A stretch of DNA of 64,000 nt from an uncultured Chloroflexia bacterium (GTDB taxonomy: Bacteria; Chloroflexota; Anaerolineae; B4-G1; SLSP01). The translations under genes and the position numbers were made by a program. The notes beneath the pieces were generated by a model that was given only the letters and a program-made list of their open reading frames with translations, searched no databases and was not told where the DNA came from. The stretch covers positions 208,753 to 272,752 of the forward strand of contig CAVVUS010000010.1 in NCBI GenBank assembly GCA_963751345.1, in the 5' to 3' direction. How positions within the stretch are numbered: the first letter of the stretch is position 1; every line of letters begins with the position of its first letter. Of the stretch, positions 8,046 through 15,952 are shown piece by piece.

Positions 8046-8918
8046 GTGCCCTTTCGAAATCTCACTCCGACCTGCTGGGTCGCACAAAGCCCCACCTTCG
8101 CGACGAATACCGGCCTTTTCATCGCCGACGATGAAGCGTACCTCGTAGATCCCGGCATTGCGCCTGCCGAGCTCGATGCAATCGAGGCCTTTGTCGCGGC
8201 TCGAGGTGCAGCGGTGCGGGGCATCATATTGACCCACGCGCATTGGGACCACCTCTTGGGTCCATCCAGGTTCCCATCCGCTACCGTTATCGCCCACGCG
8301 GCCTATGGGGCTGTCGTCCGACAGCATGGGGCGGACCTCCAACGTCAGGTGATGCATTGGCGATCCTCAATTGCAGGGCCGGGAAAGCTGCAGCCTTTCA
8401 TACCCCCCAGGCCCGACATCACCTTCCAACAGCGCCTCACGGTGCATCTGGGCTCTCTTTCACTGACCGTGCTCCACGCGCCGGGGCATGCGCCGGATCA
8501 CTGTGCGGTCTACGAGCCCTCAGCCGGGCTGTTGTGGGCCGGCGACATGCTCAGTGACCTCGAAGTGCCGATGCCTATGTGGCGATTCTCTGCCTATCGT
8601 GCCACACTGCGCCACCTCTCGGAGTTGGACGTCAGGATTCTGGTGCCCGGGCACGGCACGCCAACCGGTGATCCGGACGTCATCTCTGGTCGTTTCAGTC
8701 AAGATCAGGCATACTTAGCGGCAGTGCAGACCTGTGTCTCGCGCGAGGTCGACCGCGCGGCATCTTTGGCTGAGGTTGTGGGGATGTGCTGCGGGGTTCC
8801 CTTTGCCCAGCCGGATGACTACCCCCACGCCCGCGAGTGGAATATCGAGCAAGCGTACCTGGAGGCGGGGGGGAAGGCTGCGGGTGTTGTGGGATGGGAA
8901 AAGGACTGGATAACGTAG
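8046..8918 (+). CDS. Metallo-beta-lactamase-fold hydrolase (start uncertain)
   Basis: THAHWDH, PGH, AGD and PGHG motifs. Confidence 0.85.
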   Translation: MPFRNLTPTCWVAQSPTFATNTGLFIADDEAYLVDPGIAPAELDAIEAFVAARGAAVRGIILTHAHWDHLLGPSRFPSATVIAHAAYGAVVRQHGADLQRQVMHWRSSIAGPGKLQPFIPPRPDITFQQRLTVHLGSLSLTVLHAPGHAPDHCAVYEPSAGLLWAGDMLSDLEVPMPMWRFSAYRATLRHLSELDVRILVPGHGTPTGDPDVISGRFSQDQAYLAAVQTCVSREVDRAASLAEVVGMCCGVPFAQPDDYPHAREWNIEQAYLEAGGKAAGVVGWEKDWIT

Positions 8919-8926
8919 GAGAGGGT

Positions 8927-9781
8927 ATGCTGACTTTGGAGCATGTGGAGGCGTATCGCACACGGACCTATCGTATGACCGATGAACTGCGAGTCAGGTC
9001 GAAGGAGGAGGCGATCCGGTTCGTCGACGCGCGTGGATATGTGATGTTCTGGCCGATCAAGGATATCGTGATGCCGAGCCTTTGGTCTGCGGTGGCGGGC
9101 GACCGCCCCGTCGCCGACGCTCACGATGATCCCGGTCACGTGACGTGGGGCTGGAAAGACTCGCTGCTCAGCGAACGGCGTTGGTACTATGGCAAGGTTC
9201 TCCGTCGGAGGGCGACCATCATCTCGCTTGGGGTTGCCCCCCTATTCTACGCGCTCAGCGAGAATTTCGGCTCCCCGGAGGAGGACTATCTCGACCAGTA
9301 CCGCGATGGCACCATGACGGCCGAGGCGAAGAGCATCTACGAGACCCTGCTGCAGGAGGGGCCGCTCAATTCCGTGGCGCTTCGCCGTGCCGCTTCGATG
9401 GCCGGCAACTCGTCGAGTTACCGGTTCAACAAGGGATTGGACGAGCTCCAGGCAGATTTCAAGGTGCTGCCGATCGGTGTTGCGCAGGCAGGTGCGTGGA
9501 ACTACGCCTTCATCTACGAATGCGTCCACCGGTACTATCCGGAGCTGCTCGAACAAGCGCGGGCGTACAAGATCAGTCAGGCCCAGCAGCGACTGCTCAA
9601 GCTCTACCTGCGCTCCGTGGGGGCTGCCACCTTTGGGGACATCGTCAAGGTCTTCTGGTGGCCCAAGCGCGAGGTCGAGAGTGCCCTGGCCGCGCTCTCC
9701 GCGGAAGGGCAGGTGGTACGGGATCTGCATATCGACGGGCAGACGGGTGAGTGGGTGTCGCTTCCCGAGCTTGCATCCTAG
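8927..9781 (+). CDS. AlkZ/YcaQ-like winged-helix protein
   Basis: AIRFVDARG, PSLW, WGWKD and YYGKV pattern; overall size. Confidence 0.6.
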   Translation: MLTLEHVEAYRTRTYRMTDELRVRSKEEAIRFVDARGYVMFWPIKDIVMPSLWSAVAGDRPVADAHDDPGHVTWGWKDSLLSERRWYYGKVLRRRATIISLGVAPLFYALSENFGSPEEDYLDQYRDGTMTAEAKSIYETLLQEGPLNSVALRRAASMAGNSSSYRFNKGLDELQADFKVLPIGVAQAGAWNYAFIYECVHRYYPELLEQARAYKISQAQQRLLKLYLRSVGAATFGDIVKVFWWPKREVESALAALSAEGQVVRDLHIDGQTGEWVSLPELAS

Positions 9782-9910
9782 TGGTCAGCTAAACTGATTC
9801 GTGGGGACTGTCATCCTGAACGAAGTGAAGGATCTATGCCTCGCAAGGGTAAGATCCTTCGCCTGCGGCTCAGGATGACGACTCTAGTCTTCAACCTAAC
9901 TATCCACTAG
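9778..9910. mobile_element. MITE-like palindromic element (133 bp)
   Basis: CTAG at both ends; 20-bp imperfect terminal inverted repeats; internal GTCATCCTGA...GAAGGATCT/AGATCCTTC...TCAGGATGAC palindrome. Confidence 0.65.
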
Positions 9911-9926
9911 CGGTAAGGAGCTGGTC

Positions 9927-10386
9927 ATGGATGACAAGGATGTAGTAGAGCAGGTCGAACTGCCGGCATCGGAGCCCGTTGCCGGTCGCGGACTAGAGCC
10001 CACGGAGGCGCGGACCGCGCAAGGTGAATCTCGATGCGTTGTTCGGGGCGACGGCCCTGGTATGGATGGGCGTTGTGCTTCTGGCCTCCAACTTGGGCTA
10101 TCTTGGCTGGTTCACGTACCAGGGCGGAAGGCTGGCGTGGGATCTACCGTTCCGACCGGCTGCGTGGCGGCTGGTCTTCCTGGGTGTAGCGGTGATTGTC
10201 GGGGCTGAGATCGCCGTGCGTTTGCTCGTTCCCCGATATCGCCGGAATGTCCTGGGTTACACGATCCTCGTGATTGTCTTCGTCTCGCTTGGCCTGGGCT
10301 ACGTCAATGTCATCTGGCCGGCGATCCTGATCGTGCTGGGCGCCGCGTTGATGCTGCGCAGACGACGCGGTAGGTCCGAGGAGTAG
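9927..10386 (+). CDS. Small membrane protein (probably one gene, frameshifted near 10020)
   Basis: AAGGAG RBS before 9927; four hydrophobic segments in the 10024 frame. Confidence 0.6.
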
Positions 10387-10508
10387 CGGACCGACCTCGG
10401 TACTATCTGGGCGCTCTGGGCATCTATCCGGGAGAGACTATCATCATCATTGACGGCGAAGGCGAGCCGGAACGATGAGCGCCGGACAGACGCGCCGTTT
10501 TTCGTTGC

Positions 10509-10536
10509 TTGACATCTGGCACGCTGCCCCTATAAT
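10509..10536 (+). promoter_or_regulatory. Consensus promoter TTGACA-N16-TATAAT of the aspS-gatCAB leader
   Basis: Perfect -35 and -10 hexamers. Confidence 0.85.
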
Positions 10537-10595
10537 CTAGGCTAATGGACTCGGTGGCAGCGAATCGTCCAATTCTCATAGGAGGCACGTGCTCG

Positions 10596-10673
10596 ATGTT
10601 GTTGTTGAATCAGTACCAGCAGATCAACGATAACGATAATCCCGGCGTGCGCCTGTGGGAGGGTCGAGCCTAG
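10596..10673 (+). CDS. Leader peptide MLLLNQYQQINDNDNPGVRLWEGRA (25 aa)
   Basis: AGGAGG RBS at 10580-10585; 9 of codons 5-15 encode Asn, Gln or Asp. Confidence 0.8.
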   Translation: MLLLNQYQQINDNDNPGVRLWEGRA

Positions 10674-10698
10674 CCGCTCAGAAACTAGCCAAGGACCC

Positions 10699-10734
10699 AA
10701 GCCACGGGCGCACGCAGGTGCTCGTGGCTTTTTT
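10699..10734 (+). terminator. Attenuator terminator 1
   Basis: AAGCCACGGGCGC/GTGCTCGTGGCTT stem plus U tract; the 5' arm can alternatively pair with 10645-10658. Confidence 0.85.
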
Positions 10735-10751
10735 CGTGCTTCAGTCTAGCG

Positions 10752-10787
10752 AAAGCCACGGACCGGCGTAAGAGCCCGTGGCTTTTT
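10752..10787 (+). terminator. Second terminator-like hairpin in the leader
   Basis: AAAGCCACGG/CCGTGGCTTT stem plus U tract. Confidence 0.7.
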
Positions 10788-10819
10788 GCATAACTCGGGC
10801 ACAAGAGGGGGGATGTCGA

Positions 10820-12596
10820 ATGGAGAAACGGACGCATCGATGCGGGGCCTTGCGGTCGGAGCACATCGGTCAGCACGTCACGCTGATGGGGTGGGTGCGC
10901 ACGCGACGTGATCATGGTTGGCTGATCTTCCTCGATCTATGGGATCGCGAGGGCGTGACCCAGATTGTCGCCGATCCCAACGATTCCGCCGATGCCCACG
11001 CGGTGGCTGGGGACCTCAGGGATGAGTATGTCATCGCCGTAAGCGGCGTGGTGCGCGCGCGACCACAGGGCACGGAGAACCCCAGCCTGGCCACCGGAGA
11101 GATCGAGGTGGTCGCCAACGCTATCGAGATCCTGAACGCCACGACGCCGCTCCCCTTTCCCGTCGAAGATGCGCCGAAGGTGGATGAGGTGGTACGTTAC
11201 CGTTACCGCTACCTGGACCTTCGGCGTGAGGCGATGCAGCGGAACTTTCGGCTCCGCCATCGCGTGGTCAAGACGCTGCGTGATTTCCTGGACACAGAGG
11301 GCTTCCTGGAGGTTGAGACGCCGGTCTTGACCCGGAGCACGCCCGAGGGTGCCCGAGACTACCTGGTGCCCAGCAGGATTCATCCCGGTGAGTTCTACGC
11401 GTTGCCGCAGTCGCCCCAGCAGATGAAACAGTTGCTGATGGTCGCCGGCGTGGACCGCTACTATCAGGTGGCGCGCTGCTTTCGCGATGAGGACCTCCGG
11501 GCCGACCGCCAGCCCGAGTTCACGCAGTTGGACCTGGAGATGAGCTTTGTCGAGCAGGAGGACGTCCTTTCCATGGTCGAGGCGATGGTCCGTGAGATCG
11601 TCGCGACGGCGGCGCCCGACCGTCCTCTGGCGACGACGCCCTTCCTCCGGCTGACCTACGACGAGGCGATGGCGCGGTACGGGACGGACAAGCCCGATCT
11701 GCGTTTCGGCATGGCCTTCGTCGACTGCTCGGCGATTCTGTCAGAGAGTGAGGTGCGGATCTTCCGGGACGTCACCGCGGGGGGCGGGGCCGTCAAGGGA
11801 TTCCGCGCTTCGGGGTACGGCGCGACCTCTGCGACGGAGCTGGAGACGCTGCAGACGTTGAGCAAGGAGTTGGGCGCCCAGGGCGTGATCTGGTTCCGCG
11901 TTCGGGACGGCGGGTTGGACGCTCCTGTTGCGCGCCATCTCAGCGCCGAGGAGCAGCGGGCGCTGATCGAGGCCTTCGACGCCGGGGATGGGGACCTGCT
12001 GCTGCTGGTGGCAGGTGCCCTCGACGTCGTCAACGGCGCGCTCGACGGGCTGCGTCGGGAAATGGGTCTACGTCTGGGTCTGATCGATTCGGGAGCCCTG
12101 GCCTTCGCCTGGGTGGTTGACTTTCCCGCTCTTCAAATGGGACGCAGACAATCACCGTTGGGATTCGGAGCACCATCCGTTTACCAGCCCGCGACCGGAG
12201 GATCTTGCGACACTTGAGTCGGATCCGGGTGGGGCACGCGCCAGTTGCTACGATCTGGTCTGTAACGGTTGGGAACTCGGGTCGGGCTCGATCAGGATCC
12301 ATCAGCGGGCGCTTCAGGAACGCGTGCTCAAGTTGTTGGCTTACACGCCCGAGGAGGCAGAGGCCAGCTTTGGTCACTTGATGGAGGCCTTCGAGTATGG
12401 CGCGCCGCCGCACGGTGGGTTCGCTGTGGGCATCGATCGCCTCGTCGCGATATTGGCCGGGACTGACACGATCCGGGATGTGATTGCCTTCCCGAAAACG
12501 CGTCAAGCCACCGACCTGACGATGCGCGCGCCGGCGCCCGTCACGGCTGCCCAACTGGAGGAAATCCACATCCGGATTGCAGGACGCCGCCGTTAG
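10820..12596 (+). CDS. aspS: Aspartate-tRNA(Asp/Asn) ligase, probably non-discriminating (frameshift near 12125)
   Basis: [35 protein letters not shown] and GAPPHGG motifs across two frames. Confidence 0.95.
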
Positions 12597-12671
12597 GGGA
12601 CAGCCCAAAGATCAAGTTAGCTGAGCACCAACGTGGCGGGAGGAAGGGCATTTAGGGACGAGGAGGTAGAG

Positions 12672-12995
12672 ATGACAACCCCTGACGAAGGGCACGTGAT
12701 CGATCAAGCGTTGGTCGAGCACGTCGCTTTCCTGATTCGACTGGCGTTGACGGATGACGAAGTGGAGACCTTTACCGAGCAGTTGAGCACGATCGTGGGG
12801 TACTTCGATCGGCTGGCCGAGGTCGATGTGACCGACGTGCCACCGTATCGCCAAGCTCAGATGGGACGTGCACGCCTCCGTGACGACGAGGTGAGGCCTT
12901 CGATGGCCCGCGAGGACTTCCTGGCAAATGCGCCACAACAACAGGATGGGTTTGTGCGTGTTCCCGTCGTCCTGGATGTTCCTGACGAAGGCTGA
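12672..12995 (+). CDS. gatC: Asp/Glu-tRNA amidotransferase subunit C
   Basis: VEHVA.L.RL, LRDD and LANAP...VP.V motifs; position in the operon. Confidence 0.9.
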   Translation: MTTPDEGHVIDQALVEHVAFLIRLALTDDEVETFTEQLSTIVGYFDRLAEVDVTDVPPYRQAQMGRARLRDDEVRPSMAREDFLANAPQQQDGFVRVPVVLDVPDEG

Positions 12996-13004
12996 GGAGG
13001 CGCC

Positions 13005-14470
<1,466 letters not shown>

Positions 14471-14488
14471 CGGGAGGAGCGTAGCGCC

Positions 14489-15952
14489 ATGGCGAACGAC
14501 ACATACGAAGTAGTCATAGGGATGGAAATCCACGCCGAGCTGCGGACGGCCTCAAAGATGTTCTGCGGCTGCCCTGTGGTCGATACGACCGTAGCCGAGC
14601 CGAATACCGCCGTCTGCCCCGTTTGCACGGGGCTGCCGGGTGCGATGCCGGTTGTCAACAAGCGTGCCGTTGAGCAGGCGATGATGGTGGGGCTGGCGCT
14701 CAACTGCCGGATCAATGAGTTCACCAGCTTCGCCCGCAAGAACTACTTCTACCCCGACCTGCCCAAGGGATACCAGATCTCACAGTACGATCATCCCATC
14801 GCGACCGACGGCTGGCTCGAGATTCGGACCGATGACGGCGAAACGGTGCGGGTTGGGATCACGCGCGCGCATCATGGAGGAGGACACGGCCAAGAGCTTC
14901 CACCACGGAGCCGGTGGGTACACGCTGATCGACTTCAACCGGTCGAGTGTGCCGCTGCTCGAGATCGTCTCAGAGCCCGACATGCATTCGGTTGCTGCGG
15001 CTCACACCTATGCGACGAAGATCCGCGAGATCCTTCGCTACCTCGGCGTCAACACGGGTGACATGGAGAAGGGGGTGCTGCGCTTCGAAGCCAACGTCTC
15101 CGTGCGCCCACGTCGGCAGCGAGATCCTCGGCACCCGGACGGAGATCAAGAATCTGAACAGCTTCCGGGCACTGGTGCGGGCATGCGAGTACGAGATCGA
15201 CCGCCAGATTGACGTCGTCGAATCCGGCGGCATCGTGGCGCAGGAGACGCTGGGATGGGACGAGGCGCGCGGCGTAACCTATTCCCAGCGCAGCAAAGAA
15301 CACGCCCACGACTATCGATACTTCCCGGAGCCGGATCTGCCTCCGCTCTACATCGATCGCGCCTGGGTTGAGGAAGTGGCGGCGACACTGCCCGAGCTGC
15401 CCGATGCAAAGTACGCTCGACTGGTCAAAGCCTATGGTCTCCCGGAGAACGACGCCCGCATCCTAGTCGGCGACCAGACGCTCGCCGACTACTTTGAGGC
15501 AGCCGCCGGAATCTACGATGGAGAGGCCGCGTCGGTGAGCAAGTGGATCGTGGGCGAATTGGCAGCGCTGATGAACCGGCAGGGAGTGGCCGTCGACGAC
15601 ATCCGCGTGACGCCGGAGGCGCTCTCGTCGCTGGTCGCGCTCGTCGACAAGGGCACGATCAGCCAGAACAGCGCGAAGGACGTCTTGGGTGCCATGTTCG
15701 AGACCGGCAAAGCCGCCCAACGTCATCGTACAGGAGAAGGGACTTGTTCAGATCTCCGACCAGGATGCACTCTCGCAGGTCGTCGATCAGGTGCTGAGCG
15801 AGCACCCAGGTGAGGCGGCAGCATACCTCGAGGGCAAAGAAAGCCTGCTACAGTGGTTCATGGGCCAGGTGATGCGTGCGACGCGTGGCCGTGCCCAGCC
15901 GCAGACGGTCCTCGGACTGCTGCGCGAGAAACTCGAAGCCCGTCGGTCCTGA
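14489..15952 (+). CDS. gatB: Asp/Glu-tRNA amidotransferase subunit B (three frameshifts)
   Basis: [34 protein letters not shown] and MGQVM motifs in successive frames. Confidence 0.95.

Follow-up and report, generated by a model that had tools for sequence, protein, structure and literature searches.

What controls the aspS-gatCAB operon of an uncultured Anaerolineae bacterium (Chloroflexota), in which the gene for an aspartyl-tRNA synthetase (AspRS) is followed by the genes of the amidotransferase GatCAB? The question is raised by a 64,000-nt stretch of contig CAVVUS010000010.1 (assembly GCA_963751345.1), hereafter the window, whose coordinates are used throughout and in which aspS is preceded by a leader at 10509-10819. 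The initial annotation of this leader, made from the letters of the window alone, described it as an attenuator governed by a short peptide rich in Asn, Gln and Asp codons. Our analysis leads to an element of the same kind: with a probability of roughly 80%, it is a ribosome-mediated (leader-peptide) transcription attenuator of the operon. Based on sequence comparison and folding, we infer that the leader is translated, that ribosomes stall on it and that the response is to asparagine. The leader-peptide attenuator is a known kind of element, and the amino-acid specificity and the target operon of this one are new.

All parts of the leader lie on the plus strand. It begins with a sigma-70-type promoter at 10509-10536 (TTGACA at 10509-10514, a 16-nt spacer and TATAAT at 10531-10536), which agrees with the consensus at 12 of 12 positions. 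Two promoter-like sites occur in 9800-11400, compared with 0.3 +/- 0.5 in shuffled sequences, and the upstream regions of relatives have a promoter of the same form in the same place. The leader open reading frame (ORF) at 10596-10673 has its ATG at 10596, its TAG at 10671-10673 and 25 sense codons, and AGGAGG stands before it at 10580-10585. Its regulatory codon zone, 10608-10640, contains Asn at codons 5, 11, 13 and 15, Gln at codons 6, 8 and 9 and Asp at codons 12 and 14, so that codons 5-15 read N-Q-Y-Q-Q-I-N-D-N-D-N. The end of the ORF hosts region 2 (10645-10665), the 5' strand of an antiterminator. Positions 10645-10658 are the reverse complement of 10702-10715 but for one position, a G.U pair, which gives a 14-bp helix; 5 further base pairs between 10661-10665 and 10694-10698 extend it. 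An exact match to the region 2 word was found solely in the leader when the whole genome was searched. Region 3 (10694-10715), the 3' strand of the antiterminator by complementarity and folding, doubles as the 5' arm of terminator T1 (regions 3:4; 10699-10736), composed of a 13-bp stem at 10699-10730 and a following T-run. The promoter, the AGGAGG motif, the ORF with its codons and the 14-bp helix had all been placed by the initial annotation exactly where we find them.

The initial list of structures, comprising the antiterminator and T1, was nevertheless incomplete, as it missed two more. The first is the pairing of region 2 with region 1 (10573-10590), which is the leader's own Shine-Dalgarno region; the two are joined at 10573-10582 with 10652-10661 and at 10585-10590 with 10645-10650, an anti-antiterminator that hides the ribosome-binding site. 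The second is T2 (regions 5:6; 10752-10787), a tandem terminator-like hairpin plus T-run, recognized by its fold, with stem letters closely resembling those of T1; a simple terminator scan does not flag it because of its long loop. All these structures are more stable than shuffled sequences would lead one to expect. The antiterminator fold (10643-10717) has a free energy of -43.0 kcal/mol (z = -5.4; 0 of 200 shuffles as stable), T1 of -23.4 kcal/mol (z = -5.0), the hairpin of the Shine-Dalgarno region with region 2 (10571-10663) of -37.4 kcal/mol (z = -4.25) and T2 of -19.6 kcal/mol (z = -3.6). Within 10596-10640, the first leader codons (Met, then Leu; a conserved feature of most relatives) complement the Asn/Asp codon run; the default fold accordingly has the start codon base-paired with the regulatory codons within the Shine-Dalgarno:region 2 hairpin.

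One could suppose that a chance ORF happens to lie beside ordinary terminators of the upstream gene, since short ORFs are common and that gene ends at 10386. However, the consensus promoter is situated between this gene and the terminators, and the arrangement recurs among related genomes despite differing upstream genes, by which this explanation is effectively refuted. We sampled 22 genomes of the genus, 19 of which could be evaluated for the leader; in the others the contig ends 49 nt upstream (G016), such an aspS copy is missing (G009) or the gene is partial and was left out (G020). All 19 evaluable genomes contain the leader ORF, both antiterminator strands (regions 2 and 3) and T1. Taken together, the folding relative to shuffles and this recurrence put the arrangement beyond chance. 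Named records with the same motif are metagenome-assembled genomes of Anaerolineae. In addition, an environmental contig from four DNA runs carries a close variant of the leader, all 18 differences of which lie outside regions 2, 3 and 4.

To assess conservation, 16 distinct leaders were aligned (mean column identity 63%). Regions 2 and 3 have columns that are invariant across all 16, third codon positions included. Each of the 16 has an ATG with a Shine-Dalgarno motif before it, in frame with an Asn run and a stop, and the same is seen in 3 further genomes of the genus. Eight different distances, from 40 to 64 nt, separate the ATG from region 2, and a single frame is kept throughout. In the antiterminator, 94.4% of alignment cells are paired, as opposed to 24-52% when the partner strand is slid by 1-3 columns; for the region 1:2 helix (86.7%) and T1 (91.8%) together, the figure is 89.0%, as opposed to 35-66% in the slid controls. 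A T2 counterpart, with a stem sequence common to T1, is found in 14/16 leaders. Thus, the alignment of relatives that had been proposed as a check bears out the conservation of the ORF and of both alternative helices within the genus, and with them the attenuation logic of trp/his type, but it yields little covariation. Pairs changed on both sides number one in the antiterminator (in the 5-bp extension, in three sequences) and two in the remaining helices. With core helices that do not vary, covariation is scarce, and the structural case therefore rests on complementarity and conservation rather than on compensatory change.

The initial annotation held that Asn, Gln and Asp are all sensed. To characterize the codon content of the leaders, we pooled the ten codons before the conserved tail in the 16 leaders (n = 160) and used 789,000 residues of the genome's long ORFs as background. 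Asn accounts for 74/160 codons (46%, background 2.3%), Gln for 36/160 (22.5%, background 3.7%) and Asp for 9/160 (5.6%, background 6.1%). Based on this enrichment, Asn is the main sensed codon and Gln the second. Asp codons occur in the sub-lineage of the window, which itself has two, and are not a feature of the family, so the third part of the earlier claim did not hold. Asn codons are exchanged synonymously while the amino acid is retained. The wobble-read, T-ending Asn codon prevails in the leaders (54 compared with 20 ending in C), whereas it makes up only 27% of the genome's Asn codons.

The composition of this zone could also be explained in another way. The leader might be a general translation-coupling device that senses ribosome availability or the coupling of transcription to translation, its Asn/Gln richness being incidental, for example a consequence of A/T-rich unstructured RNA before a G+C-rich helix. 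The codon zone is indeed A/T-rich in a genome of 63% G+C, and with region 1 being the Shine-Dalgarno site any failure of initiation would give termination. Still, in the two alternative frames these nucleotides yield Ile/Thr/Ser or stop codons, and changes of length always retain the Asn frame. Moreover, of the two enriched residues, Asn is what the downstream enzymes produce and Gln is their amide donor, and leaders before aspS in two sister families, described below, are enriched in Asp/Asn using different nucleotides. We therefore regard a device of this kind as improbable in comparison with an attenuator that reads specific codons.

Does the geometry of the leader allow such reading? In ribosome-position folding the A site was stepped codon by codon and only RNA 3' of the ribosome was folded. 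In the window, the antiterminator has a probability of about 1.0 up to codon 13 with the 3' edge of the ribosome at +12, or up to codon 12 with the edge at +15, and T1 has a probability of at least 0.91 from the next codon on, which places the modelled switch at codon 13/14. In 15/16 leaders the model switches where the Asn run ends; one leader, L041, behaves differently. An alternative procedure, in which only the footprint was masked and pairs could span the ribosome, gave an erratic and physically doubtful profile and was replaced. In the fold with no ribosome, the Shine-Dalgarno:region 2 helix (0.92) and T1 (0.95) dominate, which makes off the default state. Thus, in the model the codons are placed as an attenuator requires: a stalled ribosome would free region 2, and a ribosome at the stop codon would cover it. 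The caveat raised at the outset, that stalling at the last Asn codons masks the antiterminator, is reproduced by the same calculation.

These results suggest the following course of events. Transcription would start a few bases past 10536, and a ribosome would load at the AGGAGG/ATG of the 25-codon ORF and trail the polymerase. When Asn-tRNA(Asn), and probably Gln-tRNA(Gln), are plentiful, the ribosome would pass region 2 and reach the stop at 10671; with region 2 covered while regions 3 and 4 are transcribed, T1 would form and transcription would end before aspS. Under a shortage of charged tRNA(Asn), the ribosome would stall on the Asn/Gln(/Asp) codons at 10608-10635, leaving region 2 free to pair with region 3; this would tie up the 5' arm of T1 and let the polymerase continue. 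If no ribosome is loaded, region 1 would pair with region 2 and T1 would form, the default off state. The leader would thereby act as the amino-acid-specific feedback sensor of the operon.

The stalling could in principle have another cause. The tail behind the Asn run is nearly invariant, and Pro follows the last Asn in 14/16 leaders, as it follows the Asp/Asn run in most sister-family leaders. Such features would suit an arrest peptide, with stalling caused not by hungry codons but by nascent-chain contacts of the conserved C-terminal tail, on which a small molecule might act. Conservation in the tail, however, extends to third codon positions, and changes in the tail improve or keep RNA pairing while altering the peptide. 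In particular, a T-to-C change in region 2 of two further genomes alters the peptide and turns the G.U pair into G-C, which implies that the constraint on the tail acts on the RNA. In addition, a stall within the tail would cover region 2 and favour termination, and could not induce the operon. We consider an arrest peptide very unlikely, and stalling at Asn and Gln codons remains our preferred explanation. Considering leaders of both types, the Pro codon stands directly or a few codons after the Asn or Asp/Asn run in most of them (loci L015-L030, L096 and L106; 10641-10643 in the window); it may slow the ribosome or simply start the G+C-rich helix.

It should also be asked whether the helices could be set by a ligand, the leader being a riboswitch or a tRNA- or protein-binding RNA, T-box-like or of an unknown class, with a fortuitous ORF. 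The invariant core helices would fit, as they are typical of ligand-binding RNAs, and in Clostridium acetobutylicum the same pathway is reportedly controlled by a tRNA(Asn) T-box before an aspS-gatCAB-type operon, as announced by the title of a 2012 paper by Saad and colleagues. In the window, a search of 10300-11000 against 4227 Rfam families with Infernal (cmscan, E <= 10) retrieved no T-box and no known leader family, only one chance match to a miRNA (E = 6.9), in agreement with the earlier statement that no T-box is visible. Furthermore, the most variable part of the leader retains its frame and its Asn identity, for which an aptamer has no need, and there is no conserved unpaired pocket outside the helices. 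A ligand-operated leader thus has a very low probability. Compared with the Clostridium element, the leader-peptide attenuator proposed here would serve the same pathway and likewise couple antitermination to the charging of tRNA(Asn); the T-box binds uncharged tRNA directly, whereas here the proposed sensor is the translating ribosome.

Regulation of the second terminator may follow from the same switch. As a hypothesis, we envisage a relay in which the antiterminator would free the 3' arm of T1 for pairing with the near-identical 5' arm of T2. In equilibrium folds the relay fits 4/14 leaders (the window, L012, L013 and L041). In L033, T2 is folded in both states, L003 and L008 show the opposite behaviour, and in the other seven T2 is essentially unfolded in both states.

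If the leader senses asparagine on behalf of this operon, where else does it occur? No such leader was found before the second aspS copy that the genus inherits vertically (15 loci), before the only aspS in each of 15 further genera of the family, in the gatC upstream regions of 5 other genera, or before asnS and glnS of the window's genome. One candidate in this set, a short ORF at L073 preceded by a Shine-Dalgarno motif and containing three Asn codons, lies upstream of the likely -10 element and has no terminator, and was judged to be due to chance. The leaderless aspS genes of the family (L044-L073) have a common extended -10-like promoter motif about 40-60 nt before the start codon and a short untranslated leader.

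In two sister families, aspS has no adjacent gatCAB. Of these loci, 14/15 carry an Asp/Asn-run leader of different sequence together with a G+C-rich terminator; in the 15th, L017, no leader was seen in the only 209 nt available upstream. A consensus fold was made from seven of these leaders. The antiterminator is favoured around the Asp/Asn codons or a few codons after them in 10 of the 13 leaders modelled, in four of them also at all earlier positions. In a quick maximum-likelihood tree of aspS, with SH-aLRT supports only, the operon copy branches as a separate clade (support 99) outside the one that unites the sister families, and the leaderless second copy nests within its own family. These placements suggest that the aspS genes behind the two leader types are not orthologous. 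A sample of 80 aspS loci spanning many phyla added only L096 and L106, both in Chloroflexota, as further cases of an Asp/Asn leader with a terminator. One may combine these observations into a more elaborate scheme: a two-stage multivalent attenuator, in which one peptide reads both Asn and Gln, the leader's own ribosome-binding site serves as anti-antiterminator and T1 relays to T2, with independent Asp/Asn leaders having arisen on two non-orthologous aspS lineages within one order. We find this scheme doubtful as a whole and offer it tentatively.

What the operon is for bears directly on why asparagine should be sensed. The initial annotation assigned it to the tRNA-dependent transamidation pathway, and gatCAB is indeed directly downstream. 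However, the window's genome also encodes AsnRS (430.9 bits) and GlnRS (741.8 bits), both above cut-offs. AsnA was not found in this 93%-complete assembly. The sole AsnB-like match (141.9 bits, below cut-off) adjoins genes for PqqD and a transglutaminase-core protein and was therefore rejected as an asparagine synthase in favour of a lasso-peptide cyclase; the gene (locus L077, contig C23:239000-241800, outside the window) is fragmented over several frames. The single gatB match of the genome lies within the operon. With AsnRS and GlnRS present and AsnA and a genuine AsnB absent, the operon is best read as a route of tRNA-dependent asparagine biosynthesis rather than as an obligatory charging route. 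The operon AspRS is presumably non-discriminating, as its link with gatCAB suggests. In a survey of 61 related genomes, 22 of them in the genus, AsnRS was found in 55/61, GlnRS in 42/61 (21/22 in the genus), gatB, always single-copy, in 55/61, and AsnB above cut-off in 24/61. The gatB of the genus genomes lies in this operon. Two aspS genes are present in most genomes of the genus, and gatC and gatA follow the orthologous aspS copy in 12/13 loci, the 13th locus ending too early.

A similar situation is documented elsewhere. According to the accessible part of PMC4206432, Thermus thermophilus, Deinococcus radiodurans and Bdellovibrio bacteriovorus have kept GatCAB to make Asn by the tRNA-dependent route beside AsnRS and GlnRS, and a U1-A72 pair in tRNA(Asn) is required for the two-step route. 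The window's genome resembles these bacteria, as far as that text describes them, in having AsnRS, GlnRS and GatCAB while lacking AsnA/AsnB and in having U1-A72 in tRNA(Asn) (its tRNA(Asp) has G1-C72); its genus resembles them in having two AspRS genes. It differs from that description in two respects: the extra AspRS of Thermus and Deinococcus is of archaeal type, whereas here both copies are of bacterial type, with a GAD domain seen in the operon copy, and the operon AspRS of the window belongs to a clade of its own outside the vertical lineage. The same part of the text mentions no regulatory leader for the Thermus, Deinococcus and Bdellovibrio systems.

Several observations weigh against an asparagine-sensing attenuator and have to be set beside the evidence above. 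By prediction, the final one or two Asn codons would be unproductive. With pairs permitted across a stalled ribosome, there is competition from the region 1:2 helix and the outcome of the model is erratic. The covariation signal is weak, as shuffles reach the observed score in 32/500 and 14/500 trials. For three of the 16 aligned leaders, the first hit came from an exact pattern of regions 2 and 3; a protein search later found them too, as genomes of the genus. The spacing of 10-11 nt between the Shine-Dalgarno motif and the ATG is long. Asp, one of the residues of the leader in the window, has no genus-wide enrichment. AsnB above cut-off is present in 8/22 genus genomes, about a third; hence the operon does not provide the only route to Asn in all of them. 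Finally, the assembly contains frame breaks of the indel type in aspS, gatB and elsewhere, and the second aspS copy known from relatives in the genus was not found in it at its 93% completeness.

The operon itself is encoded on the plus strand. aspS (10820-12596) specifies a bacterial-type AspRS in which the Pfam domains tRNA_anti-codon, tRNA-synt_2 and GAD are distributed over two frames. It is followed by gatC (12633-12995; Pfam GatC, 1.3e-22), whose true start is probably internal to the ORF, by gatA (13005-14513; Pfam Amidase, 1.2e-154) and by gatB (14489-15813), the frame of which is broken (14489-15061 and 14947-15813), with GatB_N and GatB_Yqey in two frames. Both aspS and gatB look like essential genes. 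At the frame break of aspS, near 12125 (12100-12140), a C-run of the window is longer by one C than in a 95%-identical relative with an open frame of 607 aa. This looks like a homopolymer indel error of the assembly rather than a sign of a pseudogene; reads of the four DNA runs give no cover at the aspS break. The assembly comprises 5.4 Mb in 49 contigs, and in it a LysRS-like gene (C10:173906-175206) is likewise split over two frames. Upstream of the leader are genes for a small LiaF-TM-like membrane protein (10024-10386) and an AlkZ-related DNA glycosylase-like protein (8837-9781). As the upstream neighbours vary among relatives, they fall outside the element.

How does the element compare with attenuators already known? 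Leader-peptide attenuation is textbook knowledge for Trp, His, Leu, Thr, Ile/Val and Phe, and its classical examples are the trp, his, leu, thr, ilv and pheA leaders of Proteobacteria, represented in Rfam by Trp_leader, His_leader and others. The element in the window shares with them a short leader enriched in codons of the regulated amino acid, mutually exclusive 1:2, 2:3 and 3:4 helices with an intrinsic terminator, and regulatory codons sited so that a stalled ribosome would free the antiterminator strand; possible multivalent sensing, here of Asn plus Gln, is reminiscent of the thr and ilv leaders. Unlike them, it would sense Asn together with Gln, its target is an operon of an aminoacyl-tRNA synthetase and an amidotransferase, it has no covariance-model similarity to any Rfam leader, and its region 1 is the leader's own Shine-Dalgarno site instead of coding sequence. 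It also has two tandem terminators, and its host is an uncultured member of the Anaerolineae. An aminoacyl-tRNA synthetase operon is controlled by the pheST attenuator of Escherichia coli as well, through the pheM leader peptide. The similarity ends with the leader-peptide attenuation of such an operon: pheST relies on Phe codons, its operon has no biosynthetic enzymes, and sequence and taxon are unrelated.

The initial annotation knew of no described example of such an attenuator, and the literature offered us none either. A full-text search yielded no account of a leader peptide built on Asn codons, nor of aspS-gatCAB being controlled by attenuation, with the limit that the supplements of PMC4833913 (leader genes by phylum, including Chloroflexi) and PMC2659441 lay outside its scope and could list such leaders. 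In their accessible parts, PMC1262725, PMC4833913, PMC2659441, PMC2494555, PMC2700814 and PMC4206432 describe no such leader.

The T-box of a Clostridium is the only documented RNA control of this pathway that we found cited. If the reading proposed here is correct, a ribosome-read and a tRNA-read solution would both have evolved for the same pathway, and the element would constitute a compact Asn-responsive genetic switch. If the Asp/Asn leaders of the sister families are indeed independent, they would point to a widespread, undescribed class of Asx-sensing attenuators governing tRNA-dependent amino-acid synthesis. For Chloroflexota, a phylum with almost no characterized gene regulation, an attenuator before aspS-gatCAB would extend classical attenuation to a new group of bacteria. 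It would also provide regulatory evidence that the extra AspRS-GatCAB operon serves asparagine biosynthesis despite the presence of AsnRS and GlnRS.

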